Below are positions 31,609-53,599 of a DNA stretch of 64,000 nucleotides, in pieces. The notes beneath the pieces were generated by a model. The model made no database searches. It saw nothing but the letters and a program-made list of their open reading frames with translations, and had not been told where the DNA came from. The stretch's first letter is position 1. The number at the start of each line of letters is the position of its first letter. Source of the stretch: an uncultured Gammaproteobacteria bacterium (GTDB lineage: Bacteria > Pseudomonadota > Gammaproteobacteria > CAWCPV01). The stretch is taken from positions 148,085 through 212,084 of the forward strand of contig CAWCPV010000007.1 of the NCBI GenBank assembly GCA_963797555.1, read 5' to 3'. The position numbers and the translations under genes are program-made.

Positions 31609-33673
31609 TTGATGGACTCAGTCGCGAAGCAATTAGAGGACATCCTGCGCGCCTACCAGGCAAAACCCGAGCTTATCCGCGAGCACTACAATGGTGAGGA
31701 ATCTGACCGGCGAGGCTACGCTGGACGCCCCCTGCTGGAGCTGATCCAGAATGTTGAGGATGCCCTCGCGGACGCGGAACAGCGGGGCGATATGCTGCTG
31801 GCGCTCACCGACGGAATGCTCACCATCGCCAACCAGGGTACTCCGTTCTCGGAGCGGGGCTTCCAGGCGCTTTGCGATCGGAATGACAGCCCCAATCGCC
31901 GCAGCCAGCGTTTCGTGGGCAGCAAGGGCACCGGATTCAAGGCCGTGCTCAACTGGTCTGACGGACTGGAAATCTACTCGGGGGCCATCGGGGCGCGTTT
32001 CGACCGAGTTGAGGCGGCAACCCGGATCCTTGAGGCTGTATGCGATGAGGGGCGTACGCGGCTCGATGCAGACGGGCACTGGCCAGACTCCCACATGCCC
32101 CTCCTGCGGGTGCCGCTACCGGCGATTCCGGACCAGCGCATGTGTCAGCTCCTTGGCGAAGGCTGGGCAACCGTCATTCGGCTTCATTTGTTCCCCGACA
32201 GGGTGACTGAAGTCGGCGACCAGCTGCGCTCGCTGGATCCGCGCGACCTACTTTTTCTCAGCCACCTCGGCGAGGTGACTCTGCGGCTGGACGGTGTACC
32301 GCTCACCTGGACACTGCACCGGCATCGGCATCGGCAAACCCAGGGCGTCGAATCCCACGACCTAGAGGTGCTGAAGGACGGCAGGACACACGCGAGCTAT
32401 CGGGTGCTGCGGAGACGCCTGCCGGATGTCCGCCCGGAGGAATCCGATGAGGTCGGGGACGTCGAGGTCGCGCTCGCCTACTGCACCGACGCGGGCGACC
32501 AAGCGACAGCGAGTTACGTCTACAATTTCTTCCCGACAGAGTGCCTTTCCCCCTTGCCGGCGATAGCGATTCACGGGACCTTCCTGCTCACCTCTGACCG
32601 CAACCACTTGCGCAAAGACGATCCGAGCTACCAGGACGCCTTGATCGCGGCCCTCAGCGAGCTGTGCGCAGAGTACCTGATCCCGGAGCTCGTGGATCGT
32701 TTCGGACACAGGGCGCTGAACTATCTGCGGCCTGGGCCGCAGGTGGCGGGCTCATCAGAGAGTGTCGAGCGCGTGCTCAGCGAACGGTTGGTCGGTACGG
32801 TCCGGTCGATGCCTTTCGTGCCCACGGTGAGCGGTCGCAACGTGGCTCCTAAGGACCTGCGGCTGTGGAGCCATAGGTTGGGAGATCTGCTCGACGAGCA
32901 TCCCGATGCGCCAGACGAACCGGCGCTTCCCCGTCCCGCTTGGTGGCGGCGCATGCTTCGTCCGCTGTCCGCGGGCGCCACTCGGAGAGGACGCTCAAAT
33001 GACCCATGGGATCCAGCCGTCCTGCACCAAGCATTGAAGGATTTGGCGGGGCGGCGGGATCTCATGGAAGACGCCTTGGCGAGACTGCTTGAGAAACTCG
33101 AACGATCGCAGGAGGACGCCCATGCGTACCTTCATAACAAGGGGATCAGCGAAGAAGACATCAAGCTCTGGCACCCGCCGGAAACCACGAAGCCGGATCT
33201 TCCACTGTCACCCCCAATTCGGCATCCCGAACCCGTGCCCATGGTCCCTCCGACCGAACCCGAACCTGAGCCAATTCCGCCTACGACCGGCGTCCCCGCC
33301 GTTACCGTCGGGGTACCGGCGCCCGAGCCGGTGGTTCTCCCTACGGAGATTCCGCTCGTGACGGTTGTCCCCCCGACCCCGCAGGTACCGCCCAATGTCC
33401 CCCCGAGCGGGGGGCCCGGCCGGGACCAGTCCGCTCGCGAGCACGGCACGACCGCCGAGGCGTGGCTTCGAAAACAGCTCAGCGATCTGTTCCAAGGGCA
33501 GTGCGAAGTCAGCGACAGACCAGACCGTAGCCAAGGCGGCGAGTCAGACATCGTCATCCGGAGGAACAGTGAAGATCTGCTGCACGTCGAGGCCAAAGCG
33601 GTCGAGAGAGGCCTAATCTACTGGAGCGAGGGTGAAGTTGAGAAGGCATTGCAGTCGGGAGACAGGTACGCTA
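31609..33673 (+). CDS. Sacsin-like GHKL (HATPase_c_3-type) ATPase + DUF3883 protein, 3' end cut by the IS66-like insertion at 33674
   Basis: N-terminus LLELIQNVEDALAD...LTIANQGTPFSERGF...FVGSKGTGFKAVLNW matches the sacsin/HSP90-like Bergerat fold. A Pro-rich linker follows, then a DUF3883-like nuclease-like block (GGESDIVIRR...LLHVEAKAVERG...). The last 10 codons of ORF 31609..33702 are IS-derived. Confidence 0.65.
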
Positions 33674-33765
33674 GTAACCGTTCAGACCCTCCCACCAGTT
33701 GATCGATGCGTTAAGAGCGCGTCCAGCGCAGCAGAGCCGCTCGGCTTGTCGTACACTCCCGGCTC

Positions 33766-34484
33766 ATGGATCAAGAGCCCTCTATTCCGCAGGCGATCAC
33801 GGCGAGCGGCCGGAGCTTTACCGAAGAGGAGATCTCCGCCATCGTCCGAATGGTGTCGATGTGCGTGGGCCTGAGTCGTTTTGAGCTGGCGCAGACCATC
33901 TGTGAGCTGCTGGGGTGGAGACGGGACAACGGAGCCCTGAAGTCCCGCGAGGGTCGGGATCTACTGGAGCGGTTGGAAGCTCGGGGGGATCTGAGGCTTC
34001 CCGCCAAGCGCACGGGCAGGCCCAAGGGGCGGCGCACCTGCACTGCGCAGACCGATCGGGGCGAACGCCGCGGCGAGATTGCCGGTGCGCTGCAGGAGGT
34101 GGCCCCGGTGGAGCTTCAGTTAGTGCGCCAGGCCGAGGGACGGGCATTGTGGCGCGAGCTTCTCGCGCGCTATCACTACTTGGGCTATGCCACACCCTTT
34201 GGGGCCCAGTTGGTCTATCTCATCTGCTCCCAGCGCCGGGAGGGGGAGGTGTTGGGCGGGCTCACCTACACCAGCCCGGCCTGGCGCATGCAGGCCCGCG
34301 ATGCGTGGATCGGCTGCGCTTTGCCGGGACCTGCTACCGGGCGGCCAACTGGTGCGAGGTGGGCGAGACCAGCGGACGCGGGCGCATGGACCGTGCGCAC
34401 CAACGCCATGGCAGAGCGATAAAGCGGGTCTTCCTCTACGCTCTGCACCCGCAGGCCAGAGAGCGCCTGCGCGGTGAGCGCTGA
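33766..34484 (+). pseudogene. DUF4338-like ORF of the IS66-like element (copy A, internal deletion at ~34313)
   Basis: The N-terminal 180 aa are identical to copy B. The C-terminal block RFAGTCYRAANWCEVGETSGRGRMDRAHQRHG...* is present, but ~190 bp between are missing relative to copy B. Confidence 0.6.
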
Positions 34485-34486
34485 AC

Positions 34487-36057
34487 TCAAGCGGGCGCAG
34501 GAAGCGGCGGTGCCTCAAAGCCGCGGCGTCGGTGGGCGAGGACATCTCTGAGATAGCACAGCGGGGAGCTCAATCGCAGCCGAGAAGTCTCGATCACACT
34601 GGCGAGCAGCGCCAGCGCCCGGCTGCCTTGTTCGCTGCGGGTCCCCTGGCTGATGCGACGCAGAATCACCCAGTGACGCAGCGCCCGCTCCGCCACGTTG
34701 TTGGTCAGCGGCAGCTGAGGCTCATCCAACACCCGGAAGATCGCCCCCCAGTCGTTGAGCAGCTCCTTGCCCAGCGCCTGGGCCTTGTCATAAGGGCAGC
34801 AGCTCATGCGTTCACACAGGGCCGTGGAGCTCGTTCGAGCTCGCCCGGGTGGGCTTGCCGCAGGGAGCCGCCCGGTCCCTCGCGGGCGTGATAGACGGCC
34901 TGCATCAGCGCATCGAGCAGGTCATAGACCGCCTGGCCGTAGCCCTGGAGGGTGGGCGAGAGGCAATCCCTCAGGCCCCGGGCCTTGCGAATGAGATGCG
35001 CCCAGCAACGCAGGCGCTTGGCATAGTCCCGATAGACCTGGTACCCATCGCTCATCAGATAGCCGCAGAAGAGATCCTCGATGAGGTTCTGAAACATCTC
35101 TTTGGCGCGAGAGCCGACCAAGAACAGCGCCGTCGAGGCCGAGATGAACACCCATAACCACAAGGGCTCTCCCCATTGCTTGTGCGGTGTCTCATCGGCA
35201 TGCATGAGGGCCGCTTCCAGCAACTGGGTCACCAGCTCATCCTCGACCGGCTCGCAGGCACGGGCGGTCTCCATCACGCATTGGTGGAGGGTGCCGATGC
35301 CGAGCGCCAGCCCAAACACCTCGTGCAGGAACTCCCGGACCAGGCGGATGGACAGGCGCATCCGAAACCGCAGCCAGACGATGAAGGCGCACAATCCCGG
35401 CCCCACCAGGCGCCACTCGCCAAGCTCCACCCCTCGCCAGCATCCCAAGTGCTCGGGCGCGCGGTGCGGCGCCTGCCGGGTCTCATGACCACAGTCGCAA
35501 CGGCTCTGGTAGTATACCTGCCGCGTGCAGGTCAGGCGCAGCCCCGGCGCCTGCTCATCGCCAAAGACCAAGTCCAGCCTATCAAAGGCGGTGTAGGGCT
35601 TCGCCTGCTCAGGATTGAGCGCCCCACCACACAGCGCACAACTTCCCGGCCGATGATGGTCCCAATCGGTGACTGTCAGCTTCTGGGCGCGCCCGAATCC
35701 CTGGGAGCCAGGCTGCCGGCCCGCTCGGCGCTGCGTCCCTGAGGTCTTGCCACTCGTGTCCTTTGCGCCCTTCTGGCCGCCAGCCCCGGGGAGGCCATCC
35801 TCCTCAGAACGGCTCTTGGCCTCCTCGTCCTCAGGACCGGCGTCGGCCTCTTCGTCCTCCCGCGCACGCAGCCAGGGGTCTTGACTGCTCGGCGGACGAG
35901 AGCTATTGGAGGGACTCTGATTGAGCCGCTCCCACGCTTCCTTGAGATCCTGCAGCAGGCGGATGCTCAGCGCTGCCAGCGCATCGGGATCCTTCTGCCT
36001 CAGCTCCAGAATGCGCTCCTCGCTGAGCTGACGAAGGTCGTGCTCCTTGAGCACCAT
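34487..36057 (-). pseudogene. tnpC: IS66-family transposase (TnpC-like), copy A, frameshift near 34805
   Basis: ORF 34804..36102 matches the copy-B transposase (zinc-finger CxxC..CxxC, MHADETP DDE block) up to ...HPGEL. The last 105 aa are in ORF 34487..34807 in another frame. Confidence 0.7.
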
Positions 36058-36304
36058 GATTGTGTGTGACAGTGAGGTCGAGGAACATCCTGCCAAGGGC
36101 ACCCAACTGTCTCACGCTGGAACCGTTTTGTCCAGCCCTCCGGGTCAAAATATTCCAGGGGGGTGAACGGTTACCTCATCGAGTGCAAAATGCCGGAACC
36201 GCCCGTCACGGAACCAGTTGGGATCAATTCGATTTGCTGCCAAGTGGTTGTGAAATAGTGAAACTGATATTTGACTGCCGGCGACCTACATGAGCGCAAT
36301 AGCG

Positions 36305-36632
36305 CTAATACTCCTCCGAGGTGGCCACCGACACGCCGAGCCGGACGATCCGCGTCACTTTGTCGAGCGATCCCAAATGCTGTCTCGCAACCGCGAGGGC
36401 GTTGAGCGCCGCGAGGTGGGCCGCCTTGCGCCCCGCTTCCACATCGAGCTCCGCGCCGACGCGCCCAATGAATTTCGCCCCGCGGCCTTCCGTGGGAAGC
36501 ATGCCGGTCAGGAAACAGCAGGTTGCCCGGTCTGCACCGCCTCCACATAGATGCCGAACGGCTCCGGCGGCGCCGGGAGCTTGATGCCGAGCTCGGCGAG
36601 ACGGTCCTCGGCGGTCGTTGAGTTTGTGGTCA
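36305..36632 (-). pseudogene. RidA/YjgF-family-like gene, frameshifted and apparently truncated
   Basis: ATG at ~36632 gives MTTNSTTAEDRLAELGIKLPAPPEPFGIYVEAVQTG. A second frame (36305..36502) continues ...GRVGAELDVEAGRKAAHLAALNALAVARQHLGSLDKVTRIVRLGVSV. The usual C-terminal ~40 aa were not found. Confidence 0.35.
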
Positions 36633-36651
36633 TGACGAAAGCTCCTTTCAA

Positions 36652-37380
36652 TTACCAGCGGCCGAAATGAGCGCCGCCATCGACGTACAGGATGTCACCA
36701 GTGACCGTCGCGGCGTCGGTCAGGTACATGACCGCGTCCGTGATGTCCTTGACGTCGAAGGCCGACCCATCGGCGACAGGCTCTCCATCACGTCCTTCGG
36801 AGTCTCCCGGTGAAGCGGCGTGTCGACGACGCCCGGCGCGACGGCGTTCACGCGAATGCCGTCTTTCGCGTACTCCATCGCCAGGTGCTGGGTGATCGTT
36901 TCAAGACCGCCTTTGGTGATCATCGGCACCGCCGCCGTGACGCCCCGGATCGGGTTGCGAGCAAGGGCCGCCGTGATCGTGACGATGCTCCCGCCGGTCT
37001 TCTGCGCTAACATTTGCTTGATGCAGAGTTGGGTGACGTACAGGAAGCCCTCGAGGTTCGTCGAGACGAGCGACTTGAAGTCCTCGGCCGTGTAGTCCGT
37101 GAACGGCTTGGTGAAGAAGATGCCGGCGTTATTGACCAGCGCGTCGATCGACTTGAAGCGAGATAGCGCCGTCTCGACGATCTTGGCGGCAGTTGCCGGC
37201 TCGCCGATGTGGCCGTCCACCAGAGCGACGCTGGTCGGAAGCCGCGACCTCGGTGGATTGGGTCACCTTCCGGGAATTGGCAACGACGTTGAAACCCCGT
37301 TCGACAAACCCTTTCACGATTCCCGCGCCGATTCCCTGCGAAGCTCCGGTCACGATGGCTGTCTTCCGTGGGCCGCTCAT
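36652..37380 (-). CDS. SDR-family short-chain dehydrogenase with two apparent frameshifts (~37230 and ~36790)
   Basis: N-terminal TGASQGIGAGIV Rossmann motif (ORF 37129..37380), catalytic middle (ORF 36720..37220, NNAG...) and C-terminal ...AFDVKDITDAVMYLTDAATVTGDILYVDGGAHFGRW* in a third frame ending at 36652. Confidence 0.6.
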
Positions 37381-37435
37381 GGTTGTTTACCTCGAAAACG
37401 TCTTGTCACTGGAAAAAATTCGATGGTCAAGCGGA

Positions 37436-38443
37436 TCAGAAATCCGCGTCCAGCACGATGCGGTAACGGGCCTTGCCTGATTCAAGTCGGGCGAAGGCCT
37501 CGTTGATCTTGCTCATCGGGAAGTGCTCGGTCTGCGGCGCGATATTGTGCCGTGAAGCAAAGTCGAGCATCGTCTCGATCGCCACCGGCGAGCCGGTCGG
37601 CGAACCCGAGACGCTGCGCTGCTGCACGATGAGCGAGAACGCCGCGACCGGGATCGGTTCCAGCACGGCGCCGACGACGTGCAGCCGGCCGTTGGGCGCG
37701 AGCGTGCCGATCATCGCGTCCCAATCGAGCTTCACGTTGACGGTGCTGATCAGGAGGTCGAAGCTGCCGCCGAGTTTCTTGATCGCCGCCGAGTCCTTGC
37801 TCGACACGACGTGATTCGCCCCGAAACCTTTGGCTTCATCGAACTTGCTCTCGCTCGACGTGAACGCGGTCACGTCGCAGCCGTAGGCGGCGGCGAACTT
37901 CACGGCCATGTGCCCCAACCCGCCGATGCCGATGATGCCCACCCGGTCGGTCGGCTTGGCGTACATCGCCAGCGGCGCGAAGACGGTGATGCCCCCGCAC
38001 AAGAGCGGCCCGGCTTCGGCGAAGTTCAGCTTTTCCGGCAGCGGGATGGCCCAAGCCCAGTGCGAGCGGATGTGGGTCGCGAACCCGCCGCGATGACCGA
38101 CGATGGTCGCTTGCACTTGCGGGCAAAGGTGATGGCTTCCCGACATGCACTGGTGACAGTGCATGCAGCTGCCCGAGTTCCAGCCGACGCCGACGCGCTG
38201 TCCGACCTTGAGACCCTTGGCATTCGGACCTATGGCCGTGACCCGACCGATGACCTCGTGGCCGAGAATCGCGGGGTACTGCGAAATGCCCCAGTCATTG
38301 TTCAAGACGGAGAGATCGGAGTGACACAAACCGCAGTGTTCGACAGCGACTTCAACGTCCTCGGCCCCGAGCGGTCCGAGATCAACGGTTTCGAGCACCA
38401 TCGGCTGCTTCGCCGCCTTCGCAACCCATGCCTTATCATTCAT
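37436..38443 (-). CDS. Zn-dependent alcohol dehydrogenase (cinnamyl-alcohol-DH / YahK-like, NADP type)
   Basis: Start at the ATG at 38441-38443 (MNDKAWVAKAAKQP...). Has GHEVIG, the structural-zinc CxxCxxC cluster (CMHCHQCMSGSHHLC) and GIGGLGHMAVKFA. Confidence 0.8.
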   Translation of the reverse strand: MNDKAWVAKAAKQPMVLETVDLGPLGAEDVEVAVEHCGLCHSDLSVLNNDWGISQYPAILGHEVIGRVTAIGPNAKGLKVGQRVGVGWNSGSCMHCHQCMSGSHHLCPQVQATIVGHRGGFATHIRSHWAWAIPLPEKLNFAEAGPLLCGGITVFAPLAMYAKPTDRVGIIGIGGLGHMAVKFAAAYGCDVTAFTSSESKFDEAKGFGANHVVSSKDSAAIKKLGGSFDLLISTVNVKLDWDAMIGTLAPNGRLHVVGAVLEPIPVAAFSLIVQQRSVSGSPTGSPVAIETMLDFASRHNIAPQTEHFPMSKINEAFARLESGKARYRIVLDADF

Positions 38444-38921
38444 CGCGTCGCCTATTCTGAAAGGTGGGCCGGATTGGCCCTCCGTGGAAACTCTGACGTA
38501 GCCGGCGGCCTGCAGGTGCCTCACCTGCGAGGTGAGAATAGGCCACAGGCAAGGCAGATACAATCTGGGCGTCACACGCCGTTCGGTGTGCGACGGTCTT
38601 GGTCCGACGGCCCCACAGGTAGGCTGGATTGGCACAACGGGATGCGTCGGACCCCGGCTTCGCGCTTGCGGTAGCGCCTTTGTGCACACCAGCTCACGGT
38701 CGCAGAGCTTCCGCGGGCCTGCGGTTCTCGGTCCAGCGCGCCGTGAGAGGCTCGCAGCGAAGATCTGGTTCGGGCGCACCGCGGCGTCGTCGCCCTCCGG
38801 CCCGTCCGGCACGTCGAACAGGCCGCCGGTTTATGAAGCGCTGGAAGCCTCGCCGGGCGCCCTCCTTTGGCGCAGGGCCAGCCAACACGAACTCCCGATT
38901 CCCACGGTACCCCCTCAACTC

Positions 38922-39785
38922 TCACCCTCCGGTCTCGAATCCAGGATAGAGCGTCATTCCGCCGTCCACGAACAGCGTGATCCCGTGAACGTAATCCGAA
39001 TCGTCGGAGGCGAGCCATACCGCCGCACGGCCGATCTCGTCCGGCTCTCCGATGCGTTTATAGGGTATAAGCTTGAGAAGATCGGCGTATGCCTCGCGGC
39101 TTCCCCACGCTTCCATGTTGATGGGCGTACGAATGGCACCGGGCGCAATGCTGTTCACGCGGATGCGGTAAGGCGCCATTTCCTGCGCCATGCTTTTCAT
39201 CATGAGCATGACGCCGCCCTTCGATGCGGCGTAATTCACATGGCCCGCCCAAGGAATCACCTCGTGCACCGAGCTGATGCAAATGACCTTCCCGGCGGCG
39301 CAGGAGATGTCTCTGTCGACTCCTTGCTTCTTGAACTGACGCACGGCTTCCCGGGCGCAGAGGAACTGGCCGGTGAGGTTCACGCCGATCACGAAGTTCC
39401 AATCGGCAAGCGTCATCTCATCGAATCGTGCGTCTTTCTGAAGCCCGGCGTTGTTGACCAGGATGTCCAGGCGTCCAAACCGCTGGACGACGTCCTGAAC
39501 CATGGCCTGCACCTCGTCCTCCTTGCTGACATCCGCCGAATAAGCGTAGGACTCGGCGCCGCAGCGCTTGATTTCGTCCACGACCTCGTCGGCCAGCTCT
39601 TTGCGGCTCACATAATTGACCACCACGTCGGCACCGGCATGACCCAGGGCGGCGGCGATGGACTTGCCGATTCCCGAGTTGGCACCCGTCACCAGAGCTT
39701 TCTGGCCTTTCAATACTTTCACAACGGAGCAGCGCGGCATCACCGGTTCCGGAAATTCTTCCTCGATGAATCTGGTATCGATCAT
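38922..39785 (-). CDS. SDR-family oxidoreductase (glucose-1-dehydrogenase-like)
   Basis: TGANSGIGKSIA Rossmann motif, NNAG, and a YAASKGGV active-site segment; intact 287 aa. Confidence 0.8.
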   Translation of the reverse strand: MIDTRFIEEEFPEPVMPRCSVVKVLKGQKALVTGANSGIGKSIAAALGHAGADVVVNYVSRKELADEVVDEIKRCGAESYAYSADVSKEDEVQAMVQDVVQRFGRLDILVNNAGLQKDARFDEMTLADWNFVIGVNLTGQFLCAREAVRQFKKQGVDRDISCAAGKVICISSVHEVIPWAGHVNYAASKGGVMLMMKSMAQEMAPYRIRVNSIAPGAIRTPINMEAWGSREAYADLLKLIPYKRIGEPDEIGRAAVWLASDDSDYVHGITLFVDGGMTLYPGFETGG

Positions 39786-39972
39786 TTTCCCGTCCTCCAG
39801 TCGCTTTACGGATAGGCACTTCGGGCGCCCGCGTCGACCGCTTTCTCGCCTCAGAGCGAGGCGGAGTCAAGCCTCGGGGCGCGAGGCGGCCGCACCGAGA
39901 GTGCACAGACACGGTCTACCGCCGCACATGTTCCGGCCCCGCCCAGGCCACGCACCTTGGTCAGCGGCCCGC

Positions 39973-41472
39973 TCAGGCCGCCGCCTCCTCGCCGGGCAGT
40001 CCCTGCGCCGCCAGTGCGGCCCCGACCCTGAGCCCCCAGGCATAGATGGTGAGCGCCGGATTCACCCGGCTGGAGCGCGGCAGCACGCTGCCGTCCACCA
40101 CATAAAGCCCTTCCATCCCGTGTACCTTGCCCCCGGCATCCACCACCGAGTCGTCGGCATCCTTGCCGGTGACCAGCGTGCCGCAGGCATGGGCCGTGGC
40201 CTCGATCGGCATGAGGCGCGCGACGCTCACCAGGCCGAGGCCGAGCAAGCCGCGGCGGAAGGTCGCTACGAAGCGCCGGTGCTCGTCGAAGGCCGGGCGG
40301 ATTCGCGTCGGGTCGTAGTCGACCAGTGGGCGGTCCGTCCCCTCGGCCCGAGCCGCCACGCGGTTGTCGGGGTGGCTGCCGTCCTCGGTGGTGAGGAAGA
40401 ATCCGTAGGCATGCCGGCCCATGGCCGCCGCCAGGAAGCGCGGTGCAAAACCCGGCGCCTGCGTCACCACCAAGTCGCCGACGATGCCGCCTCCGAGGGC
40501 CTGAAGAATGCTGTGCGGGCAGTCGTCGTGCATCAGCAAGGCGGTTTTGCAGAGCACGTCGGTGCGCCGCGAGGCGCCGAAGGCGATGAGGATGGTGTTC
40601 AGGTGGGTCTTGAAGTTGCGCCCGATGCGCCGATAGCTAGGGAGCTGGGCGGCGAGCCCCTGGTCCTCCACGTACGCCTGCAGCAGGCGCGGCGAGTGCA
40701 TGGCGCCGGCGGCGAGCAGCACGTGGCGGGCGCCATATTCGGTGCCGTCGGCGAGCCGCACCCCGGTGATGAGCCGCGGGTTGCCGAAAGCACCGACCAG
40801 CGCAGCGACCGGGCTGCCCGTCACGATGCGCAGGTTGGGACGGTCCTCGACCTTGGCCAGCATGGCCGCCTCCGCATCGGACTTCAGCCGGTGGGGCACG
40901 GCATAGCCGTCGAAGTGGCTCGCCTCCGCGGGGTGCTCCAGGATGTCCGAAACCAGCCCGATGGGCATGGCATGCTCGTGCCAGCCGGCGTCCTTGCGCG
41001 CTAGCCGGGAGAATATGGCGCGCAGGTTGCGCTCGACCGGGAAGTTGCGCACCCCCAGCAGCCGCTCCGCCTCGTCGTAGAAGGGCGCCAGGTCCTCGTG
41101 GCCTATGGGCCAAGCGCGGCACTGGTGGGGCACGTCGTCGCCGAACTCATGGGGACTCAAGCGCAGCAGAGCCGCGCCGTACCACTTGGTCTTGCCGCCG
41201 AGGTTGAAATACTCCTCGGGGTAGACCGTTTTACCGCGGCCGTCCACCCAGGGCTCGTGGTTCTTGAAGGCGCCCTGGCGCAGGACCTTGTCGGGGTCCA
41301 GCGTGCTCCCGTCCTCCGGCAGCGCTGGCCCCTTCTCGATGACCAGCACGGAGCGTCCGGTCTGGGCCAGGCGATATGCGGCGGCAGAGCCGCCTGCGCC
41401 GGAGCCCACGATGACGTAGTCGTATGTCCTGTCGTTCATGCTCTCACTCCACAGTGCCGCGACTGCCGACAA
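39973..41472 (-). CDS. GMC-family FAD-dependent oxidoreductase
   Basis: N-terminal YDYVIVGSGAGGSAAAYRLA FAD fingerprint and a GMC C-terminal domain; intact ~490-500 aa. Confidence 0.8.
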   Translation of the reverse strand: MSAVAALWSESMNDRTYDYVIVGSGAGGSAAAYRLAQTGRSVLVIEKGPALPEDGSTLDPDKVLRQGAFKNHEPWVDGRGKTVYPEEYFNLGGKTKWYGAALLRLSPHEFGDDVPHQCRAWPIGHEDLAPFYDEAERLLGVRNFPVERNLRAIFSRLARKDAGWHEHAMPIGLVSDILEHPAEASHFDGYAVPHRLKSDAEAAMLAKVEDRPNLRIVTGSPVAALVGAFGNPRLITGVRLADGTEYGARHVLLAAGAMHSPRLLQAYVEDQGLAAQLPSYRRIGRNFKTHLNTILIAFGASRRTDVLCKTALLMHDDCPHSILQALGGGIVGDLVVTQAPGFAPRFLAAAMGRHAYGFFLTTEDGSHPDNRVAARAEGTDRPLVDYDPTRIRPAFDEHRRFVATFRRGLLGLGLVSVARLMPIEATAHACGTLVTGKDADDSVVDAGGKVHGMEGLYVVDGSVLPRSSRVNPALTIYAWGLRVGAALAAQGLPGEEAAA

Positions 41473-41500
41473 GCCGAGCCCGGCCCCCCGCAGGCCACGC

Positions 41501-42512: not shown

Positions 42513-42842
42513 CACCGCCGTTCCCAGAACTCTAGGCTCCATGCTCAGCCTCCACTCGCGGAATCCCAGTGCCTTCCGGTCTCGCACCGCCAGGCGCGGC
42601 TCCGGCGTGCCGTCTTTCGGGAGGGCTCCGCCCTTTCCTGCTCCCGGCCCGTACAACAGCTCAGAGCTTGTGAAGAAATCGTCGCGAGCGGCCCGAGAGC
42701 AAGGCGCACGGAGCGCAGCGACGAGACATATCAAGTAGATAGGCGAGGAGCGAGCACCGCGCAACGCCGCTATCGGGACGCGCAGCAGATCTATTCACAA
42801 GCTCTCAGACCTGTTCATGCCGGCGTGGTCCCGTAACGTGCT

Positions 42843-43975: not shown

Positions 43976-44122
43976 GGCTCCCAGGGCGTCCGTCAGGCTC
44001 GCAAAGGTGTTGTTGCGGTAAACCTGGAGCCTCTCTTGCCGCTCAGCCCCCGACCCTGTATCCGCCCAGCGAGACCGGCATCCGTCTCGCCGAACACGGA
44101 CTGAGCGAAGGCGAGCTGCATA

Positions 44123-44991: not shown

Positions 44992-44999
44992 GACCCGCC

Positions 45000-45266
45000 T
45001 CACCCCTTCTTCGGCTCCAGGCTGCCGCCCACGATCTTCTCGCAGGCCCCCTTGGGCAGATAGATCCACGACATGGGGTCGCTGTCCATCTTGACCTGCC
45101 CGGCACAGGCGTGGGTGCTGGTCTGACAGTCGTTCTTGCCGGCCTTGACGACGCCGTAACACTTCTCGGCTTTCTTCTCGGCGGCCACGGCCTGTCCGGC
45201 GCTCGCCAGGCCCAGCGCAACCACGCCAGCCATCGCGGAAATCAGAAGGGTCTTCGTGTCTCTCAT
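45000..45266 (-). CDS. bufA: DUF2282-type bufferin-like RiPP precursor (Sec signal peptide + four-Cys core)
   Basis: [29 protein letters not shown], then a core with four Cys (EKCYGV, NDCQ, HACAG, GACEK). Its stop at 45000-45002 lies 9 bp before the DUF692 start. Confidence 0.7.
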
Positions 45267-45613
45267 CGACGGTCTCCTATCAGCATCTCACTCAGGATTC
45301 AGGCTCCTTGCCCAAGGCGCCGCGCTCTGCGCGGCCTCGTCCCTGAGAACCGACCCGCGGGACGCGGGGCCTGGCCCGGCGTGCTCCCCGCGGATGGTGA
45401 CAATTGTGGCGGGTCGATCTCACGGCACGTTCACGAACGGATAACATTTCTGTTACGGGCGGGATCTGCGCCGTCGTCTCCGCCGGTGCCCCCAACCCCC
45501 GGCTCGGCGGGGCGCGCAGGAGCAGCAAGACGGGTCTGGTCGTGCACAGAGTTCCGCCGGGAACACCCGGCCGCGGGGTGCCCGCGCCGTGCCTTGGGAG
45601 AAGCCCCAAGCCC

Positions 45614-46405
45614 TCAGACCGGCCTGTGGCCGTGATACTCACAGAAGATGCAGCGCTTCTTGTTCTGGTGGTGAAGCTTGGCGCAAAAGACGCGCCGCGC
45701 GCCCCTCGCCCGGACGTAAACCTCGGCCGCAAGCAGCATTCCCAGCGGCGGCGCGGTGAAGTACAGCCACAGCGAGCCCCAGGCGTGGGCGGAGAAGGCC
45801 GAACCGAAGGTGCGGGCAGGGTTCATGCTCATGCCGGAGAGCGGCGCCTCGATGCTGATGTAGATCGCCACCAGGGCGCCCGCGAACAGGCCCGTGAGGT
45901 GCGCGATGCGCGCGGTGTTCGTCACGAGGAGCACCATGCTCATAAGCAGAAAGGAGATGAGCAGCTCCGCGGCGAAAGCCACCCATGGCCCCTGCGGACC
46001 AGGCATCGTCACCACATAGTTCACCTGCATGTGGGCCACGAACCCGCGAGACAGGTAGACCATGAGGGCGACGCCCAGGGTGCCGCCGAGAAACTGGGCC
46101 AAAACGTAGAACAGAGCGTCCCAGCCCGCGACCTTGCCGAGCCGGAAGAAGGTCAGGGTCACCGCGGGATTGATGTGCGCCCCCGACTGCTTCCCCCAGG
46201 GGGAGTAGATGATGCCGATGGCGGTCAGGCCCATGGCGAGCCCGAAGATCACGCGCCGCACGACCGGATCGGGGATGAGTGGCGGGACCGGAGACCCAAG
46301 GTGCAGAAGAACGATTCCGACCAGGCAGGCCGAGACCATGAACAGGCCGAGACCCGCGCCCTCCATCAGGTACTCAGGCCAGTGCCGCTGCAGTGCATGC
46401 CACAT
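45614..46405 (-). CDS. aqpZ: Aquaporin Z with a Cys/His-rich C-terminal extension
   Basis: Two NPA boxes (HINPAVT, SMNPARTF) and six TM helices. Unusual ~30-aa tail ...FCAKLHHQNKKRCIFCEYHGHRPV. Confidence 0.85.
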   Translation of the reverse strand: MWHALQRHWPEYLMEGAGLGLFMVSACLVGIVLLHLGSPVPPLIPDPVVRRVIFGLAMGLTAIGIIYSPWGKQSGAHINPAVTLTFFRLGKVAGWDALFYVLAQFLGGTLGVALMVYLSRGFVAHMQVNYVVTMPGPQGPWVAFAAELLISFLLMSMVLLVTNTARIAHLTGLFAGALVAIYISIEAPLSGMSMNPARTFGSAFSAHAWGSLWLYFTAPPLGMLLAAEVYVRARGARRVFCAKLHHQNKKRCIFCEYHGHRPV

Positions 46406-46513
46406 GTTGAAACCTCCGCACGGAGAACCCCAGGAGGCGGCGCCATCATCCGGCTGCGGCTGCGAAGCAGGCCTGCGCTGCCATGGTGTCCGCCTGGCGG
46501 CGTCTCCGATCCC

Positions 46514-48125
46514 TCAGTCGGGGCGGATTCCTGGCGTGTTCATACGCATCCGGTACAGCCCCGTCTGCGCCGCGAGATAGAGCGTCTTGCCGTCGGCATC
46601 TCCCCAGGCGAGGTTGTGGGGATGCTCGGGCCCACGCAGCGTGCCGAGATGTTTGCCTTCGGGGGAGAGGATCCACAGGCCGCCGGGCCCCGACACATAG
46701 AGGTTGCCGAGCCGGTCCACCTTGATGCCGTCGATGGCGTCCTCACCGGGCTGGGCCGTCATGTCGAAGAACACCTCTCCCGCGCCCAACGTGCCGTCGG
46801 GTTTCACGGGATAGCGCATGACCACCTTGCGCTTCGGGTCCCAGTCCCCTACGTACAGGTAGCTCTCGTCGGGCGAGAACGCGATGCCGTTGGGGCCGGC
46901 CAGATCCCGGGCGACCATATCGACCTTGCCGTTGCGCACGCGGAACACGCCGCTGAACGGGAGTTCCTTACGGCGATCGTCGAAGAATTTGGGCAGCCCG
47001 AAGGGCGGGTCGGTGACGTAGAGGTCGCCATTGGAACGGTAGACGAGGTCGTTCGGGCTGTTCAGCCGCTTGCCCTGATAGCGGTCGGCGAGCACGGTGA
47101 GCACACCGTTCTTCTCCAGGCGAGTGACCCGTCGGTTGCCGTGCTCGTTGATGGTGAGCCGGTGCTCCCGGTCCAGGGTCAGGCCGTTGGAGCCCGGCTG
47201 GCCATACTCGACGATGTCGAAGCCGGTATAGCCGCTCTTCGGGCGGAAGATGAACAGCTCGCCCTGCGGTGTCCAGCGGTAAATGATGTTGTCGTTGGGG
47301 TCGCTGAACAGCAGGTAGCCGTCCGGGTGCCACACCGGCCCCTCGGTAAACTGGAAGCCTTCGGCCAGCTTCTCCAGCTTGGGATTCTCGGGAACGATCG
47401 CATCCAGCGCCTTATCGAGGCGGACCACCTCCACGGGAACGGACACTCCCACCCCAGCGTGTTCCGGTCCATAGAAGTCCAGGGTTGCGGAGCGCACCCA
47501 GATGAAGTTCCCGGGCGGATCGGACAGCGGACCATTGACGCCGGACACCGCGAGCTGGATGCGTTGGCCCGGCTTGAGGTCGCGACCGATGACCACGCAG
47601 TTCGGGGCGTTGTAGCCACGCACGAGCCCACCTCCGGTCTGCCCCAAGACCTGCGGCAGGCGGCCGTCCACCCAGACCTCGGCGTAGTCGTCGACCACGA
47701 TCTCGAAGACCGCGGTAGAGCCGGTGGTGCCGAACCGCCCGATGCGCTCCGGGATGGTGATGGCGGTGCGGTACCAGTTGAAGCTGAGCCGCCCGGTTCC
47801 GCGGCGCCCATCGAGTGCGGCGGGATCCAGCACTTCCCAGCCCGAATCGTCGAAGCCGACCGCTCCGGCGCGGGGGACCACGTCGTGAGTCCTATTGGGC
47901 GGGGCCGCTCGGCTTCAGGTCCGGACCGGGGCTGTGGTGCGCGACGTCGACCACCTGCGCCTCGCTGTAACGCCACTGCCCCTTCACGAGAGCGACACCT
48001 GCCGCGCTGCGCAGGTCGACCGTCGCGTCCGGCCGGTGGTCGAGGGCACTCAAAGACCTCGGGGCCGCGCAGCAGGCGGCCGGCAGACCAAGCGCTGCGG
48101 CCGTGAGCAGCAGTGCGAGGGCGCG
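46514..48125 (-). CDS. Secreted SMP-30/gluconolactonase/LRE-like beta-propeller protein with an N-terminal beta-sandwich domain, apparent frameshift near 47885
   Basis: ORF 46514..47881 contains the SGL pattern (FTEGPVWHPDGYLLFSD...NGLTLD...NDLV...NGIAFSPD). A signal-peptide ORF (VSRALALLLTAAALGLPAACCAAP...) lies upstream in another frame (47892..48227). Confidence 0.55.
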
Positions 48126-48441
48126 GCTCACGACGCACCTCCCGCGGAGATCGGCTTCACCACGAAGTACAGCGATGTGGCACTTCTGCGCCGCCAACGG
48201 CCGGGCTATCTGCAACGGCCGGAACATCGACGACAGGCGGCGGTGCCAATTGGCAACGTGTCCGGTCTAACCCCTGTGCGGGCGGGTGGCATTGCGGCCG
48301 GGCAAGGCAAGCCGGTGAGGGGTGCGACCTAGACGAAAAGCATCCCTCCCGAGTCTCCCTGACGTGAACCGATCGGTGCGGACCCGCATGCCATGGTGCT
48401 GTGGGGCTGGGGTGAAACACCCCCGGCTACCGATTGGGCAC

Positions 48442-48801
48442 TCAAAACGTAATACATTTATCCCTTTCCAAAATAGCGGACATATAGTCCGACGTTCCCT
48501 TAATAACTGCCCCTTCGACTAAATCGGCAGATACAATCTGTCTTCCTGTAGCACACGCACTACATACCCAAATCTGGACTCCGGCGCTCTGAATCACAGC
48601 CAACAAATCCTTGAGTGGCGGCAGATTCACTGCAATCACATGGTTGGCGACCCCAATCTTGGCAAGGATCACGGCCTCATTCCAAAGCCATAGAACCACA
48701 TCATGTCCTTGTTCCTTGGCTGCCTTGGCAACCATGAAGGGAAGCGTCGCCATTGTTGGATCATCCGTTCCCCGAGTTCCGGAAATAATGAATGTCGTCA
48801 T
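48442..48801 (-). CDS. DsrE/DsrF-like (sulfur-relay/peroxiredoxin-like) family protein
   Basis: 119 aa starting MTTFIISGTRGTDDPTMATLPFMVAKAA...; strong Shine-Dalgarno sequence 8 nt upstream. Confidence 0.6.
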   Translation of the reverse strand: MTTFIISGTRGTDDPTMATLPFMVAKAAKEQGHDVVLWLWNEAVILAKIGVANHVIAVNLPPLKDLLAVIQSAGVQIWVCSACATGRQIVSADLVEGAVIKGTSDYMSAILERDKCITF

Positions 48802-48810
48802 AACGTTGTT

Positions 48811-48819
48811 ACCTCCCTT
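48811..48819 (-). promoter_or_regulatory. Shine-Dalgarno sequence AAGGGAGGT for the DsrE-like gene
   Basis: The reverse complement of 48811-48819 reads AAGGGAGGT, placed 9 nt before the ATG at 48801. Confidence 0.5.
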
Positions 48820-49408
48820 CGTCTTAGCCATCGTCTTCCCAACCGGATCGGGTCCGAGGTTCTGACCGCTCGCCTCTGGTGTCGCCGTCTGCTCCTTTGG
48901 AAGCTGGACCAACCGACCTCGCGGCACCGTCCAGCGGCGCGTTCGCCCCGCTCCCGACCTGTCCCTGCGGGGTTTACTCCCATTGTCACGGGAAGTCAAT
49001 GTCACCACCGGCTACAAGCCGGTGGCTTGAGTTGGGCACTGTAAGTGCCGGTTCCGGCTGAAGCCCGCTGCAAACCACCCGCCCCAAGGCGGTTCATTGC
49101 GACTCCAAGTCGCCCCCCTCAACGACCTGAAACCGATCTTCGGTCCTCTGCCCAACATCGCCGCGCAACACCCCCTTGTGGTACTTGGTACACTACACCA
49201 AGTGCACGTGCAGCCGAAAAACCGAGTGCGTCCCTCGCCTATAAGCGCTCATCCCCCTAAGCTACAAGGGCAGGCCCAAAGCTTCCAGCTCAAGCTGGGG
49301 GTTTGAACCCTCCCATGGGGTGACAATCAATAGGAAATTTTCCCGTTTTTCGGTTCGCTGCGGAAGGTAAGATCTGACTCCGGCACCGCATAACCACGAT
49401 GGGCACCC

Positions 49409-50326
49409 ATGAGCAAGAAGAAGTCGCACCAGCATCTCTTCAATGAGGAATGGGTAAAACAAGCCAGCGCCGATCGGAACCCAGCTTCATGGGCCACCCG
49501 GGCACTCGATGACTCCACCGGGGGGCAGGTCTACCTAGCCACCTTGGAGCAATGGTTTGATGCGTACCCGTTGAAGACGGACGATAAGAGTCAGATGGCC
49601 GGTCGGCTTCGGAACCTAAAAGAAAATGAGGCTCACCTCGGTGCCGTGAATGAACTAGTGTGGTGGCAATTGATGAAACGGATGGACTGGAAAGCTGAAC
49701 CCGTGCCCTGTAAGAAAGGAGTTTACACGCCAGACTTTCTGGTTCGGCATCCTCACAGATTGCATGTGGAGGTCACCACTGAGAACGTGTCGGCTAAAGA
49801 TCGCGCCGACGTACGGCCCTTAGATCACAAAGAAACGGCGCGGAGGTTGCTCAATATCGTTTGTGGCAAGAAAGGCCAGCTTTGCGCCGCAGCAGCCGAA
49901 GGCCAGCCGATCGCCCTCGCCGTCTTCGACTATACGGCATGGAGTGGCTTTGGGGCGGAGGTGGCGCGGGGTATTGCAGAGTATGTGGTATGTCCAGACA
50001 GGCTCAACGCCACGATCCCGGCCGAAGCATCGGCCATCGTGTTCGTACTCTCGCAGTTCGACGGTGAGCGGTTCAGGGTCAGCGTAGATCAGTCGGCCGT
50101 GTACCATAACCCCGTAGCCACGCATCCCCTGCCCGAATCAGTCTTCTCCTGGTTCCCCAATACCGGTTTACAGCCGAGCGTCTCTCCCCGACCGCCCCCG
50201 CATGGATATGCTTATAGTGGCTACGAGGGGGGGAACGTGGTCGAGCTCGGCCTGGGATCGAGCGTGGAATGTTGGCCTGCCGGGAAACCTGTCCGCAGCA
50301 CGCACCGAAAGTCGTCCCAACCGTAG
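49409..50326 (+). CDS. Hypothetical protein (305 aa), possible PD-(D/E)xK-like motif, lower-GC region
   Basis: ORF in a locally AT-richer segment. The segment TPDFLV...HVEVTTE resembles a D...(D/E)xK nuclease core; this is weak. Confidence 0.35.
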   Translation: MSKKKSHQHLFNEEWVKQASADRNPASWATRALDDSTGGQVYLATLEQWFDAYPLKTDDKSQMAGRLRNLKENEAHLGAVNELVWWQLMKRMDWKAEPVPCKKGVYTPDFLVRHPHRLHVEVTTENVSAKDRADVRPLDHKETARRLLNIVCGKKGQLCAAAAEGQPIALAVFDYTAWSGFGAEVARGIAEYVVCPDRLNATIPAEASAIVFVLSQFDGERFRVSVDQSAVYHNPVATHPLPESVFSWFPNTGLQPSVSPRPPPHGYAYSGYEGGNVVELGLGSSVECWPAGKPVRSTHRKSSQP

Positions 50327-50379
50327 CTGTCCGCCGGGCGCAGCCAGGGGCGGGAACGTGCTTTGCTGGCTTCTTCCGT

Positions 50380-50740
50380 TCACCCAGGTCGGGGCTGATC
50401 TGTCGCGCCGGCTGACACCTTCAACACGAGGTTGTTGACGTGTTCTCGGATCGGCTCAATGCCCTGGGCATCGTAGTCTTCTCGCGTTGGGCGAATGACG
50501 TACTTGATTCGAGAGGCTTCGTCTGTGGGCGGATTCGGGCGATCCCACGGCCGCTTCGGCAGGTTGTCTCCCCTGACGCGATGTGTCTTCCATGCCCATT
50601 CTCCCTGGACCTCCCCGTCTTTCCAGTGGTGGGCGAGGCGCGTAATAGGGTCCCATATCCATTGCACCTCCCAGTCAGCCTGAACCGGTCGACAGTCAAC
50701 TTCTGCGCCATGATGAGGTAAAAGGACGGCCATAGCGTAC
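50380..50740 (-). pseudogene. Displaced 3' end of the sacsin-like/DUF3883 gene (continues 31609..33673 in frame if the 36175-50740 segment is re-inverted)
   Basis: The reverse complement of 50733-50740 (GTACGCTA) equals the 8-mer at 33666-33673. Joining ...GAC AGG TAC GCT A to the reverse complement of 50732..50380 continues the reading frame for 118 codons (MAVLLPHHGAEVDC...) to a stop. Confidence 0.5.
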
Positions 50741-50857
50741 GTAACCGTTCACCCCCCTGGAATATTTTGACCCGGAGGGCTGGACAAAACGGTTCCAGCG
50801 TGAGACAGTTGGGTGCCCTTGGCAGGATGTTCCTCGACCTCACTGTCACACACAATC

Positions 50858-52426
50858 ATGGTGCTCAAGGAGCACGACCTTCGTCAGCTCAGCGAGGAGC
50901 GCATTCTGGAGCTGAGGCAGAAGGATCCCGATGCGCTGGCAGCGCTGAGCATCCGCCTGCTGCAGGATCTCAAGGAAGCGTGGGAGCGGCTCAATCAGAG
51001 TCCCTCCAATAGCTCTCGTCCGCCGAGCAGTCAAGACCCCTGGCTGCGTGCGCGGGAGGACGAAGAGGCCGACGCCGGTCCTGAGGACGAGGAGGCCAAG
51101 AGCCGTTCTGAGGAGGATGGCCTCCCCGGGGCTGGCGGCCAGAAGGGCGCAAAGGACACGAGTGGCAAGACCTCAGGGACGCAGCGCCGAGCGGGCCGGC
51201 AGCCTGGCTCCCAGGGATTCGGGCGCGCCCAGAAGCTGACAGTCACCGATTGGGACCATCATCGGCCGGGAAGTTGTGCGCTGTGTGGTGGGGCGCTCAA
51301 TCCTGAGCAGGCGAAGCCCTACACCGCCTTTGATAGGCTGGACTTGGTCTTTGGCGATGAGCAGGCGCCGGGGCTGCGCCTGACCTGCACGCGGCAGGTA
51401 TACTACCAGAGCCGTTGCGACTGTGGTCATGAGACCCGGCAGGCGCCGCACCGCGCGCCCGAGCACTTGGGATGCTGGCGAGGGGTGGAGCTTGGCGAGT
51501 GGCGCCTGGTGGGGCCGGGATTGTGCGCCTTCATCGTCTGGCTGCGGTTTCGGATGCGCCTGTCCATCCGCCTGGTCCGGGAGTTCCTGCACGAGGTGTT
51601 TGGGCTGGCGCTCGGCATCGGCACCCTCCACCAATGCGTGATGGAGACCGCCCGTGCCTGCGAGCCGGTCGAGGATGAGCTGGTGACCCAGTTGCTGGAA
51701 GCGGCCCTCATGCATGCCGATGAGACACCGCACAAGCAATGGGGAGAGCCCTTGTGGTTATGGGTGTTCATCTCGGCCTCGACGGCGCTGTTCTTGGTCG
51801 GCTCTCGCGCCAAAGAGATGTTTCAGAACCTCATCGAGGATCTCTTCTGCGGCTATCTGATGAGCGATGGGTACCAGGTCTATCGGGACTATGCCAAGCG
51901 CCTGCGTTGCTGGGCGCATCTCATTCGCAAGGCCCGGGGCCTGAGGGATTGCCTCTCGCCCACCCTCCAGGGCTACGGCCAGGCGGTCTATGACCTGCTC
52001 GATGCGCTGATGCAGGCCGTCTATCACGCCCGCGAGGGACCGGGCGGCTCCCTGCGGCAAGCCCACCCGGGCGAGCTCAACGAGCTCACGGCCCTGTGTG
52101 AACGCATGAGCTGCTGCCCTTATGACAAGGCCCAGGCGCTGGGCAAGGAGCTGCTCAACGACTGGGGGGCGATCTTCCGGGTGTTGGATGAGCCTCAGCT
52201 GCCGCTGACCAACAACGTGGCGGAGCGGGCGCTGCGTCACTGGGTGATTCTGCGTCGCATCAGCCAGGGGACCCGCAGCGAACAAGGCAGCCGGGCGCTG
52301 GCGCTGCTCGCCAGTGTGATCGAGACTTCTCGGCTGCGATTGAGCTCCCCGCTGTGCTATCTCAGAGATGTCCTCGCCCACCGACGCCGCGGCTTTGAGG
52401 CACCGCCGCTTCCTGCGCCCGCTTGA
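50858..52426 (+). CDS. tnpC: IS66-family transposase (TnpC-like), intact in copy B
   Basis: ATG at 50858 (MVLKEHDLRQLSEERILELRQKD... leucine-zipper-like N-terminus), CxxC...CxxC zinc finger, DDE region including MHADETP, ~523 aa. Confidence 0.8.
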   Translation: MVLKEHDLRQLSEERILELRQKDPDALAALSIRLLQDLKEAWERLNQSPSNSSRPPSSQDPWLRAREDEEADAGPEDEEAKSRSEEDGLPGAGGQKGAKDTSGKTSGTQRRAGRQPGSQGFGRAQKLTVTDWDHHRPGSCALCGGALNPEQAKPYTAFDRLDLVFGDEQAPGLRLTCTRQVYYQSRCDCGHETRQAPHRAPEHLGCWRGVELGEWRLVGPGLCAFIVWLRFRMRLSIRLVREFLHEVFGLALGIGTLHQCVMETARACEPVEDELVTQLLEAALMHADETPHKQWGEPLWLWVFISASTALFLVGSRAKEMFQNLIEDLFCGYLMSDGYQVYRDYAKRLRCWAHLIRKARGLRDCLSPTLQGYGQAVYDLLDALMQAVYHAREGPGGSLRQAHPGELNELTALCERMSCCPYDKAQALGKELLNDWGAIFRVLDEPQLPLTNNVAERALRHWVILRRISQGTRSEQGSRALALLASVIETSRLRLSSPLCYLRDVLAHRRRGFEAPPLPAPA

Positions 52427-52428
52427 GT

Positions 52429-53338
52429 TCAGCGCTCACCGCGCAGGCGCTCTCTGGCCTGCGGGTGCAGAGCGTAGAGGAAGACCCGCTTTATCGCTCT
52501 GCCATGGCGTTGGTGCGCACGGTCCATGCGCCCGCGTCCGCTGGTCTCGCCCACCTCGCACCAGTTGGCCGCCCGGTAGCAGGTCCCGGCAAAGCGGGCC
52601 GGGTCCACCAGGGTCTCCAGCAGCCAGGGACGCAGCCCATAGTGGCGCTCCCAATCCCCTACGATGCGCCGGCTGCCCAAGGCCAGCACGTGGCTCGCCA
52701 GATGAGGCACTTTCACCCAGGGCAGAATCAGGAAGCGCCCCTGATTGACGATGCGTGCGAGGTGCGCTTTGCGCGCTCTCTCGTCCCAGCCGAATCCACG
52801 CATCGCGGGCCTGCATGCGCCAGGCCGGGCTGGTGTAGGTGAGCCCGCCCAACACCTCCCCCTCCCGGCGCTGGGAGCAGATGAGATAGACCAACTGGGC
52901 CCCAAAGGGTGTGGCATAGCCCAAGTAGTGATAGCGCGCGAGAAGCTCGCGCCACAATGCCCGTCCCTCGGCCTGGCGCACTAACTGAAGCTCCACCGGG
53001 GCCACCTCCTGCAGCGCACCGGCAATCTCGCCGCGGCGTTCGCCCCGATCGGTCTGCGCAGTGCAGGTGCGCCGCCCCTTGGGCCTGCCCGTGCGCTTGG
53101 CGGGAAGCCTCAGATCCCCCCGAGCTTCCAACCGCTCCAGTAGATCCCGACCCTCGCGGGACTTCAGGGCTCCGTTGTCCCGTCTCCACCCCAGCAGCTC
53201 ACAGATGGTCTGCGCCAGCTCAAAACGACTCAGGCCCACGCACATCGACACCATTCGGACGATGGCGGAGATCTCCTCTTCGGTAAAGCTCCGGCCGCTC
53301 GCCGTGATCGCCTGCGGAATAGAGGGCTCTTGATCCAT
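52429..53338 (-). pseudogene. DUF4338-like ORF of the IS66-like element (copy B), frameshift near 52790
   Basis: ORF 52436..53338 (MDQEP...YHYLGYATPFGAQLVYLI...ARDAWI) and ORF 52429..52917 in the +1 frame (GFGWDERARKAHLARIVNQGRFLILPW...WERHYGLRPWLLETLVDPARFAGTCYRAANW...) together cover a full DUF4338-type protein. Confidence 0.6.
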
Positions 53339-53599
53339 GAGCCGGGAGTGTACGACAAGCCGAGCGGCTCTGCTGCGCTGGACGCGCTCTTAACGCATCG
53401 ATCAACTGGTGGGAGGGTCTGAACGGTTACTCGATGAGTCGTTCTACGATTGGCAGCCTCGTAATGGCGAGTTTACCGGACCGAGTGCCGCCGCGCACGA
53501 AACCGAATTCAACAAAGAAAATCAAGGCGACACCCGAGTCGGTGTTTAGCGTCGCGTAGGGCTGACTGAGCGGAGAAAACCATACTAGTAACCCACAAT

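Follow-up and report, generated by a model that had tools for sequence, protein, structure and literature searches.

How did a segment of 14.6 kb come to lie between two inverted insertion sequence (IS) copies, neither of which is flanked by a direct repeat? This question is raised by a 64,000-nucleotide stretch of DNA from an uncultured gammaproteobacterium (contig CAWCPV010000007.1 of assembly GCA_963797555.1, positions 148,085 to 212,084; hereafter the window). A first-pass annotation of this DNA had proposed that homologous recombination between the two IS66-like copies flipped everything between them. Our analysis makes an inversion by homologous recombination between two inverted IS66-family copies the likely explanation. 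Three observations support it, namely the crosswise pairing of the 8-bp sequences that flank the elements, a gene that is restored when the inversion is undone, and the distribution of internal markers among the IS copies, although a one-step transposition would give the same flanks.

A repeat search delimited the two inverted element copies by three inverted-repeat blocks that are collinear, with lengths of 1338, 638 and 522 nt and 99-100% identity. Copy A (33674-36174, 2501 bp) runs on the plus strand from its L end to its R end, starting with GTAACCGTTCAGACCC and finishing with GGGGGGTGAACGGTTAC. Copy B (50741-53430, 2690 bp) lies in the opposite orientation, on the minus strand, and is read from R end to L end along the plus strand. 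In both copies the two termini are GTAACCGTTCA (11 of 11 positions identical, followed by 3 of the next 5). The copies enclose a unique segment of 14,566 bp (36175..50740).

There is no direct repeat around copy A and none around copy B. The four flanking 8-mers pair crosswise, as exact reverse complements. GTACGCTA, to the left of copy A (33666-33673, plus strand), pairs with TAGCGTAC, to the left of copy B, which is the same target-site duplication in reverse complement (50733-50740, minus strand). Likewise CTCATCGA, to the right of copy A (36175-36182, plus strand), is the reverse-complement copy of the second duplication, and pairs with its direct copy TCGATGAG, to the right of copy B (53431-53438, plus strand). 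On re-reading all four IS ends, the positions and flanks reported in the first-pass annotation proved exact. GTACGCTA occurs only twice in the window, counting both strands, each time at these IS flanks, and CTCATCGA is found 13 times over the 128 kb of the two strands; the chance of two given 8-mers sitting exactly at the IS ends is about 1e-9 to 1e-10. When the inversion is undone in silico, each element regains a perfect 8-bp direct repeat, GTACGCTA for one and TCGATGAG for the other.

Two inverted IS copies around a cargo also bring to mind composite transposons of the Tn5/Tn10 type. The whole IS-14.6 kb-IS structure might have inserted as a unit, or the flanks and the open frame described below might be coincidental. 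We give this next to no credence and rejected it: the outer flanks (GTACGCTA and TCGATGAG) form no direct repeat and neither do the inner ones, a chance match has a probability of about 1e-9, and the split gene is validated by homology. We also rejected a site-specific invertase: no gene for one was found, and the segment is bounded by the IS ends.

The gene cut by copy A provides a second line of evidence. Its N-terminal 688 codons occupy 31609..33673 on the plus strand; as it stands, this open reading frame (ORF) runs a further 29 nt into the IS, to 33702, and encodes 696 aa. The C-terminal 117 codons, which encode the end of a NOV_C-like nuclease-type domain and a tail, are found at 50380..50732 on the minus strand. 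The proposed continuation in frame could be confirmed: once one copy of the duplication is removed, 31609-33673 runs on into the reverse complement of 50732-50380 as an in-frame ORF of 805 codons.

We put this to a decisive test by searching 1.84 billion representatives exhaustively with HMMER, using as query the 202 residues that surround the junction, which falls at residue 85/86. Not counting the truncated ORF itself, 68 proteins matched. Rather than ending at the ...GDRYA that precedes the junction, nearly all of them align as a single stretch from query residue ~2-10 to ~150-187, spanning residue 85/86, and most of these stretches come to an end no more than a few tens of residues short of the homologue's C-terminus. 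P0007 (707 aa), for example, is matched at residues 515-696, and P0009 (1492 aa) at 1304-1486. The 117 post-junction residues alone retrieve P0009 with 67.3 bits (E = 1.6e-13, scaled to the whole library) and P0007 with 57.7 bits (residues 601-696), and the pre-junction piece alone matches P0007 at 515-591, collinear with the post-junction match. Pairwise alignments show motifs common to the homologues right after the junction, such as WIWDP. When the 117-aa piece was compared by BLASTP with no more than the first six homologues, the match was weak (E = 0.08); the exhaustive search supersedes this result. Because homology extends across the junction, the two DNA pieces were once contiguous and formed one gene. 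As assembled, the segment is inverted relative to the state in which the gene halves adjoin.

The interrupted gene had been called sacsin-like/DUF3883. The homologue search bears this identification out, although the NOV_C region scores below the Pfam threshold. The N-terminal part reaches 62 bits against the NCBIfam model P_loop_sacsin (cut-off 50), and in the rebuilt protein Pfam SACS scores 15 bits and NOV_C (PF13020) 15.3-18.3 bits against a gathering threshold of 22.1, both below the threshold. The homologues P0002-P0005 are 1346-1405 aa long, and P0003-P0005 carry PF13020 and align to the NOV_C-like region across the junction. This region is thus a divergent relative of NOV_C/DUF3883 rather than a scored member of PF13020.

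A PADLOC profile for TmtA of the Tiamat system (PDLC03964) matches residues 2-429 of the protein with E = 7.8e-79, covering only profile positions 11-425 of 1538. Like TmtA, the rebuilt protein combines a strong N-terminal match of ~430 residues, a sacsin-type ATPase, with a C-terminal NOV_C/DUF3883-like domain. Unlike TmtA, with its 1063-1782 profile positions, it has 804-805 aa, about half the usual length, and covers ~27% of the best profile. By these comparisons the rebuilt gene would resemble a short version of tmtA of the Tiamat anti-phage system, and since it is disrupted, its TmtA-like product is presumably non-functional.

We then considered what kind of element had interrupted it. 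Copy B contains an intact gene for a TnpC-type IS66-family transposase (50813..52426, plus strand, 537 aa). Its product matches Pfam PF03050 DDE_Tnp_IS66 over profile positions 3-283 of 284 (E = 7.4e-39) and the NCBIfam equivalog NF033517 transpos_IS66 with 219 bits (cut-off 180). Canonical elements of the family (IS66, IS679 and ISRm14 type), as described in ISfinder, carry the three genes tnpA-tnpB-tnpC. The window element resembles these in its TnpC-type DDE transposase, its GTAA ends and its 8-bp duplication. It differs in that its 2.69 kb contain no tnpA or tnpB ORF; the sole other ORF lies on the opposite strand, convergent with the transposase gene, and is DruA/DUF4338-like (the DruA family of Pfam is named after a component of the Druantia defence system). 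The element is therefore a member of the IS66 family, but not a canonical three-gene IS66, and groups with TnpC-only relatives plus a DUF4338 partner.

For IS66 itself, duplications of 8 bp have been described (PMC6778807). Perfect 8-bp direct duplications also flank transposase-only relatives in complete plasmids of Thiodictyon (GTCTCAAC) and Thiothrix (CAATTGGT), and another, TGCTGAGC, flanks the relative at locus L095. The terminal sequences of these relatives are GTAGCCGTTCAGAGACCC, GTAACTGAACAG and GTAACGGTTCAC, and the window element shares their 5′-GTAA ends. The nearest single-ORF relatives, at 1.65-1.7 kb, are without the DruA-like ORF. An identical pair of DruA-like and TnpC genes, with ends GTAACGGTTCAC and GAACGGTTAC, was found in five other, unrelated contexts (loci among L095-L100), one of which has a perfect 8-bp duplication. 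The IS66-like assignment of the first-pass annotation was thus right at the family level, and the duplication size that it expected was justified. Because the relatives make 8-bp direct duplications, the lack of direct repeats around the window copies is abnormal, and their crosswise flanks are those predicted by an exchange between two copies. Three related IS copies on metagenome contigs (L088, at 31-38/2431-2438; L096; L097) are likewise without a direct 8-bp duplication; either the repeat has led to chimeric joins in these short-read contigs, or rearrangements often occur at such elements.

Copies A and B are not identical, and their differences serve as markers. Copy A has a 191-column deletion at 34310/34311, 638 bp from its L end, which cuts its DruA-like ORF (33766..34422, plus strand, 218 aa), whose Pfam DruA match (E = 2e-19) is confined to profile positions 31-117. 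Two 1-nt insertions, at 34826 and 34836, further distinguish copy A and frameshift its transposase gene (34487..36102, minus strand), leaving a 432-aa ORF at 34804..36102 and a remainder at 34487..34807, with a match to DDE_Tnp_IS66 over only profile positions 3-184 of 284. In copy B, one extra T places the DruA-like ORF (52429..53338, minus strand) in two frames, both of which yield a Pfam DruA match. The repaired product has 302 aa and is 99% identical to an intact 302-aa database protein, P0075.

A third copy of the element allows these markers to be placed. Exact-protein look-ups identified a contig of a related strain (contig_142003 of ENA assembly ERZ25039463, 25.9 kb, our loci L003 and L005) that carries the same block at 99.6% identity. 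In L003, too, the C-terminal piece of the gene is joined to the R end of an IS, via TAGCGTAC and 2 extra nt. The insertion of the IS into the gene is therefore older than the split between the strains. At this junction (L003 11327-11336) the two additional nucleotides relative to the window (GGTTAC-AC-GTACGCTA) represent a micro-indel or an assembly error.

The L003 copy has the 191-column deletion and lacks the two 1-nt insertions. In the window, the deletion therefore goes with the N-terminal half of the gene, via the L end, and in L003 with the C-terminal half, via the R end, while copy B is without it. Since copy B sits at the C-terminal half and yet is free of the deletion, its L part would have been acquired from another full-length copy, as a reciprocal crossover predicts. 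In the simplest reading of these sequences, a deletion-type element once lay between both gene halves, and the L part of copy B would come from a different, full-length element.

Together, these observations suggest a history in three steps. First, an element that we call IS1, with the 191-column deletion, would have inserted into the sacsin-ATPase/NOV_C (TmtA-like) gene, duplicating GTACGCTA and inactivating the gene. Second, a full-length element, IS2, would have inserted in the opposite orientation ~14.6 kb downstream, at a site without a recognisable gene, duplicating TCGATGAG. Third, a crossover inside both elements, on the transposase side of the deletion marker, would have flipped everything between them. 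If the deletion marker and the two 1-nt insertions are both older than the inversion, this crossover probably fell in the stretch that separates them, 34311-34825; otherwise it could lie anywhere in 34311-36174. The L003 copy carries exactly the marker set expected of the pre-inversion IS1 if the crossover fell between both markers (34311-34825). As the outcome, each present copy would be a chimera with one flank from each insertion, the redox/bufferin/aquaporin block would read the opposite way, and the gene halves would have come to lie 17 kb apart on opposite strands. Two insertions and a later recombination, as put forward in the first-pass annotation, account for all of the data. We infer both the position of the crossover and the involvement of host homologous recombination rather than a transposase reaction.

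A transposase reaction could nonetheless account for the flanks in one step, a rival that was absent from the first-pass annotation. Here, a single IS in the sacsin/TmtA-like gene would attack TCGATGAG, 14.6 kb away, by intramolecular replicative transposition in trans, inverting the DNA between and making a second, inverted copy. Such an event predicts the observed flanks exactly, with the old duplication split crosswise and the new one inverted, and requires two events in place of three, with neither a separate second insertion nor host recombination. To our knowledge, the transposition mechanism of IS66-family elements has not been established. The precedent is IS26, whose replicative transposition in trans gives inversions, with matched 8-bp pairs flanking different copies (He et al. 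2015, PMC4471558; an example from K. pneumoniae is given in PMC10501869). The end product is the same as in the window, an inverted segment between inverted copies with matched 8-bp sequences on different copies. IS26, however, is an IS6-family element whose cointegrate mechanism is proven and whose two copies are born identical, whereas the window copies differ by a deletion whose distribution, with the related strain included, points to two distinct parents.

The same difference argues against a one-step event in the window: copies A and B would have been born identical, yet A has the 191-column deletion and B does not. Furthermore, the deletion is linked to the C-terminal half of the gene in the related strain, such that recombination or conversion between copies would be needed anyway. 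The relatives without direct duplications (L088, L096 and L097) would be in keeping with replicative movement, but they stem from short-read metagenome contigs that may be chimeric, whereas the relatives on complete plasmids do have direct 8-bp duplications. The distribution of markers among copy A, copy B and the L003 copy thus favours recombination of two different copies, and we consider one-step transposition unlikely.

Several points weigh against inversion by recombination between the copies. The marker argument could be undone by gene conversion between IS copies, by deletion-type copies being a multi-copy subfamily (P0087 comprises seven member sequences), or by consensus artefacts in the repeats. 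Intramolecular replicative transposition would leave the very same final structure. The IS of L003 adjoins at its L end not the N-terminal gene half but a third flank, GAATGAAC, so that the uninverted state itself was not observed. Nor did the GTDB representatives and JGI metagenomes that we searched contain an IS-free or uninverted close relative: GTDB species representatives scanned with the GMC oxidoreductase of the block gave nothing, the window's own genome included; scanned with MutY of the related strain, they gave only proteins of at most 60% identity from uncultured Gammaproteobacteria; and a scan of JGI metagenomes with the rebuilt protein found nothing. Finally, all four junction sequences are identical in either orientation, so that the orientation in the cell rests on the assembly.

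This last point raises the question of whether most cells are in fact uninverted, with the assembler having joined the wrong arms of a 2.5-2.7 kb inverted repeat, or with both orientations present in a mixed population. DNA that lies between inverted repeats is classically prone to ambiguity of orientation, and recombination often leaves both orientations in one population. Short contigs cannot discriminate between them; the Logan contigs L001 and L002, for instance, end at or ~30 nt inside the IS and cannot tell the orientations apart. The organism is contained in the runs ERR11523651 and ERR11718635; a literature search for run accessions gave nothing. By contrast, the 619-kb contig that contains the window passes through both 2.5-2.7 kb repeats, with their 1.3 kb of perfect identity, resolves the copy-specific indels and holds other IS elements. 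Threading the repeats and resolving these indels would imply spanning reads, as assemblers normally break at unbridged repeats. The form of the related strain's contig name ("contig_N") suggests, but does not show, that a long-read assembler was used there. A mis-oriented or mixed assembly thus seems quite improbable, and the assembly presumably displays the true or major orientation.

Recombination between IS66 copies that leaves mismatched 8-bp flanks has been demonstrated experimentally, for a deletion, in pAt15955, the At plasmid of Agrobacterium tumefaciens 15955 (PMC6778807), which is the closest case on record. Removing one IS copy there abolished the deletion event; a recA deletion could not be made, which left the requirement for RecA untested (PMC6778807). 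The two cases are alike in the IS66 family and its 8-bp duplications, in a diagnosis made from flanks that match another copy, and in that host recombination was inferred. They differ in geometry and in evidence: in pAt15955, direct repeats gave rise to a 270-kb deletion and one chimeric IS, whereas in the window inverted copies would have given rise to a 14.6-kb inversion and two chimeric ISs, as judged by sequence evidence alone.

The inversion involves no new mechanism. IS-mediated inversion with exchanged target duplications is textbook material, and the window is a well-documented instance of it: a clean, checkable case in which a history of rearrangement can be rebuilt from 8-bp flanks and internal IS markers. 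For annotation, the inversion accounts for four features together: two orphan fragments (the 696-aa and 117-aa ORFs), two IS copies without direct repeats, a redox/bufferin/aquaporin block of 14.6 kb that reads the opposite way, and a Tiamat-like defence gene that has been lost. Of more modest side interest are the disruption of a short TmtA-like gene, the abundance of the DUF4338 and TnpC subgroup, and the occurrence of the same IS with different flanks in two strains.

The abundance of this subgroup is apparent from the repaired 302-aa DruA-like protein, for which over 7900 homologues (E <= 1e-20) were retrieved, most of them on contigs of 1-4 kb. Exact look-ups of the window transposase and of the intact DruA-like homologue P0075 found neither on record, and a literature search for DUF4338 together with IS66 found nothing. 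The element looks like a member of a very abundant two-gene IS66 subgroup. A bolder proposal, which we hold to be doubtful, is that this is an abundant subgroup, undescribed as far as our searches go, in which a DUF4338/DruA-like protein replaces TnpA and TnpB as the constant partner of the transposase. The many copies without duplications might then mean that replicative, IS26-like movement routinely inverts and deletes neighbouring DNA, here within a tRNA-Phe island with defence genes.

The island itself is evident from the related strain. Beyond the third flank of its IS, L003 carries (13834-20918) a 121-aa ORF that reads into the element, then a phage-type integrase gene, tRNA-Phe (15860-15935), yggX and mutY. 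This is the edge of a genomic island at tRNA-Phe in an uncultured gammaproteobacterium. The block therefore belongs to this island, and a further IS-mediated rearrangement separates the two strains. Within the block, substitutions between them are clustered at 36.6-39 kb and 42-44 kb. Comparing window positions 36614-50740 with L005 and L003, we counted 31 substitutions at 36.6-39 kb, 15 substitutions plus 6 gap positions at 42-44 kb, and almost none elsewhere; this mosaic divergence suggests recombination between strains within the block.

On its minus strand, the inverted segment carries 11 ORFs tied to a Pfam family, 10 of which were scanned directly: a short-chain dehydrogenase/reductase (SDR) gene with two frameshifts, a zinc alcohol dehydrogenase, a second SDR, the GMC oxidoreductase, a glyoxalase, DUF2063/HvfC_N, a split MbnB-like gene, an MIP aquaporin, SGL and DsrE. 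The 11th encodes a bufferin precursor, an 88-aa ORF (45000-45266) with the position and length of the BufA1 gene of L003. A DoxX-like region lies on the same strand. According to the first-pass annotation, all genes of the block would be co-directional. This holds for the eleven Pfam-tied minus-strand ORFs, but not for a 305-aa ORF on the plus strand (49409-50326), which is a gene call in two public assemblies. At the second junction of the uninverted order, where the reverse complement of 36175.. meets 53439.., we found no convincing second split gene, only a 125-aa ORF without a Pfam match. In a profile of GC skew and composition across 20-64 kb, the skew tracks gene strand, with too much noise for the inversion to be dated or confirmed from it.

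Several genes of the cargo look decayed, at 36720-37220, 44123-45220 and 42805-43371. Compared with the intact 242-aa gene of the related strain, the terminal SDR gene is frameshifted twice, by 1 nt each time. In both strains the gene for the MbnB-like bufferin maturase is broken into two ORFs, and in the window the DoxX region shows several indels.

Genes of mobile and defence type abound around the segment; among them are dynamin-like GTPases, DDE_Tnp_1_4 fragments, a split RES gene, TPR/NACHT-type genes and a Tn5-like IS. The RES gene, which encodes a RES-domain toxin, lies just upstream of the TmtA-like gene as two ORFs (30720-31247 and 31247-31507). Immediately to the left of the RES and TmtA-like genes, DDE_Tnp_1_4 transposase fragments in at least two frames (29338-30652) mark the remnant of another IS. 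On the far side of copy B, a TPR-repeat gene region (55073-58287) contains direct repeats of 144 bp and ~801 bp and several ORF fragments, beside which lies a Tn5-like transposase gene of the IS4 family (56941-58287). A large NACHT/AAA_16-type gene (60546-63602) follows this region.

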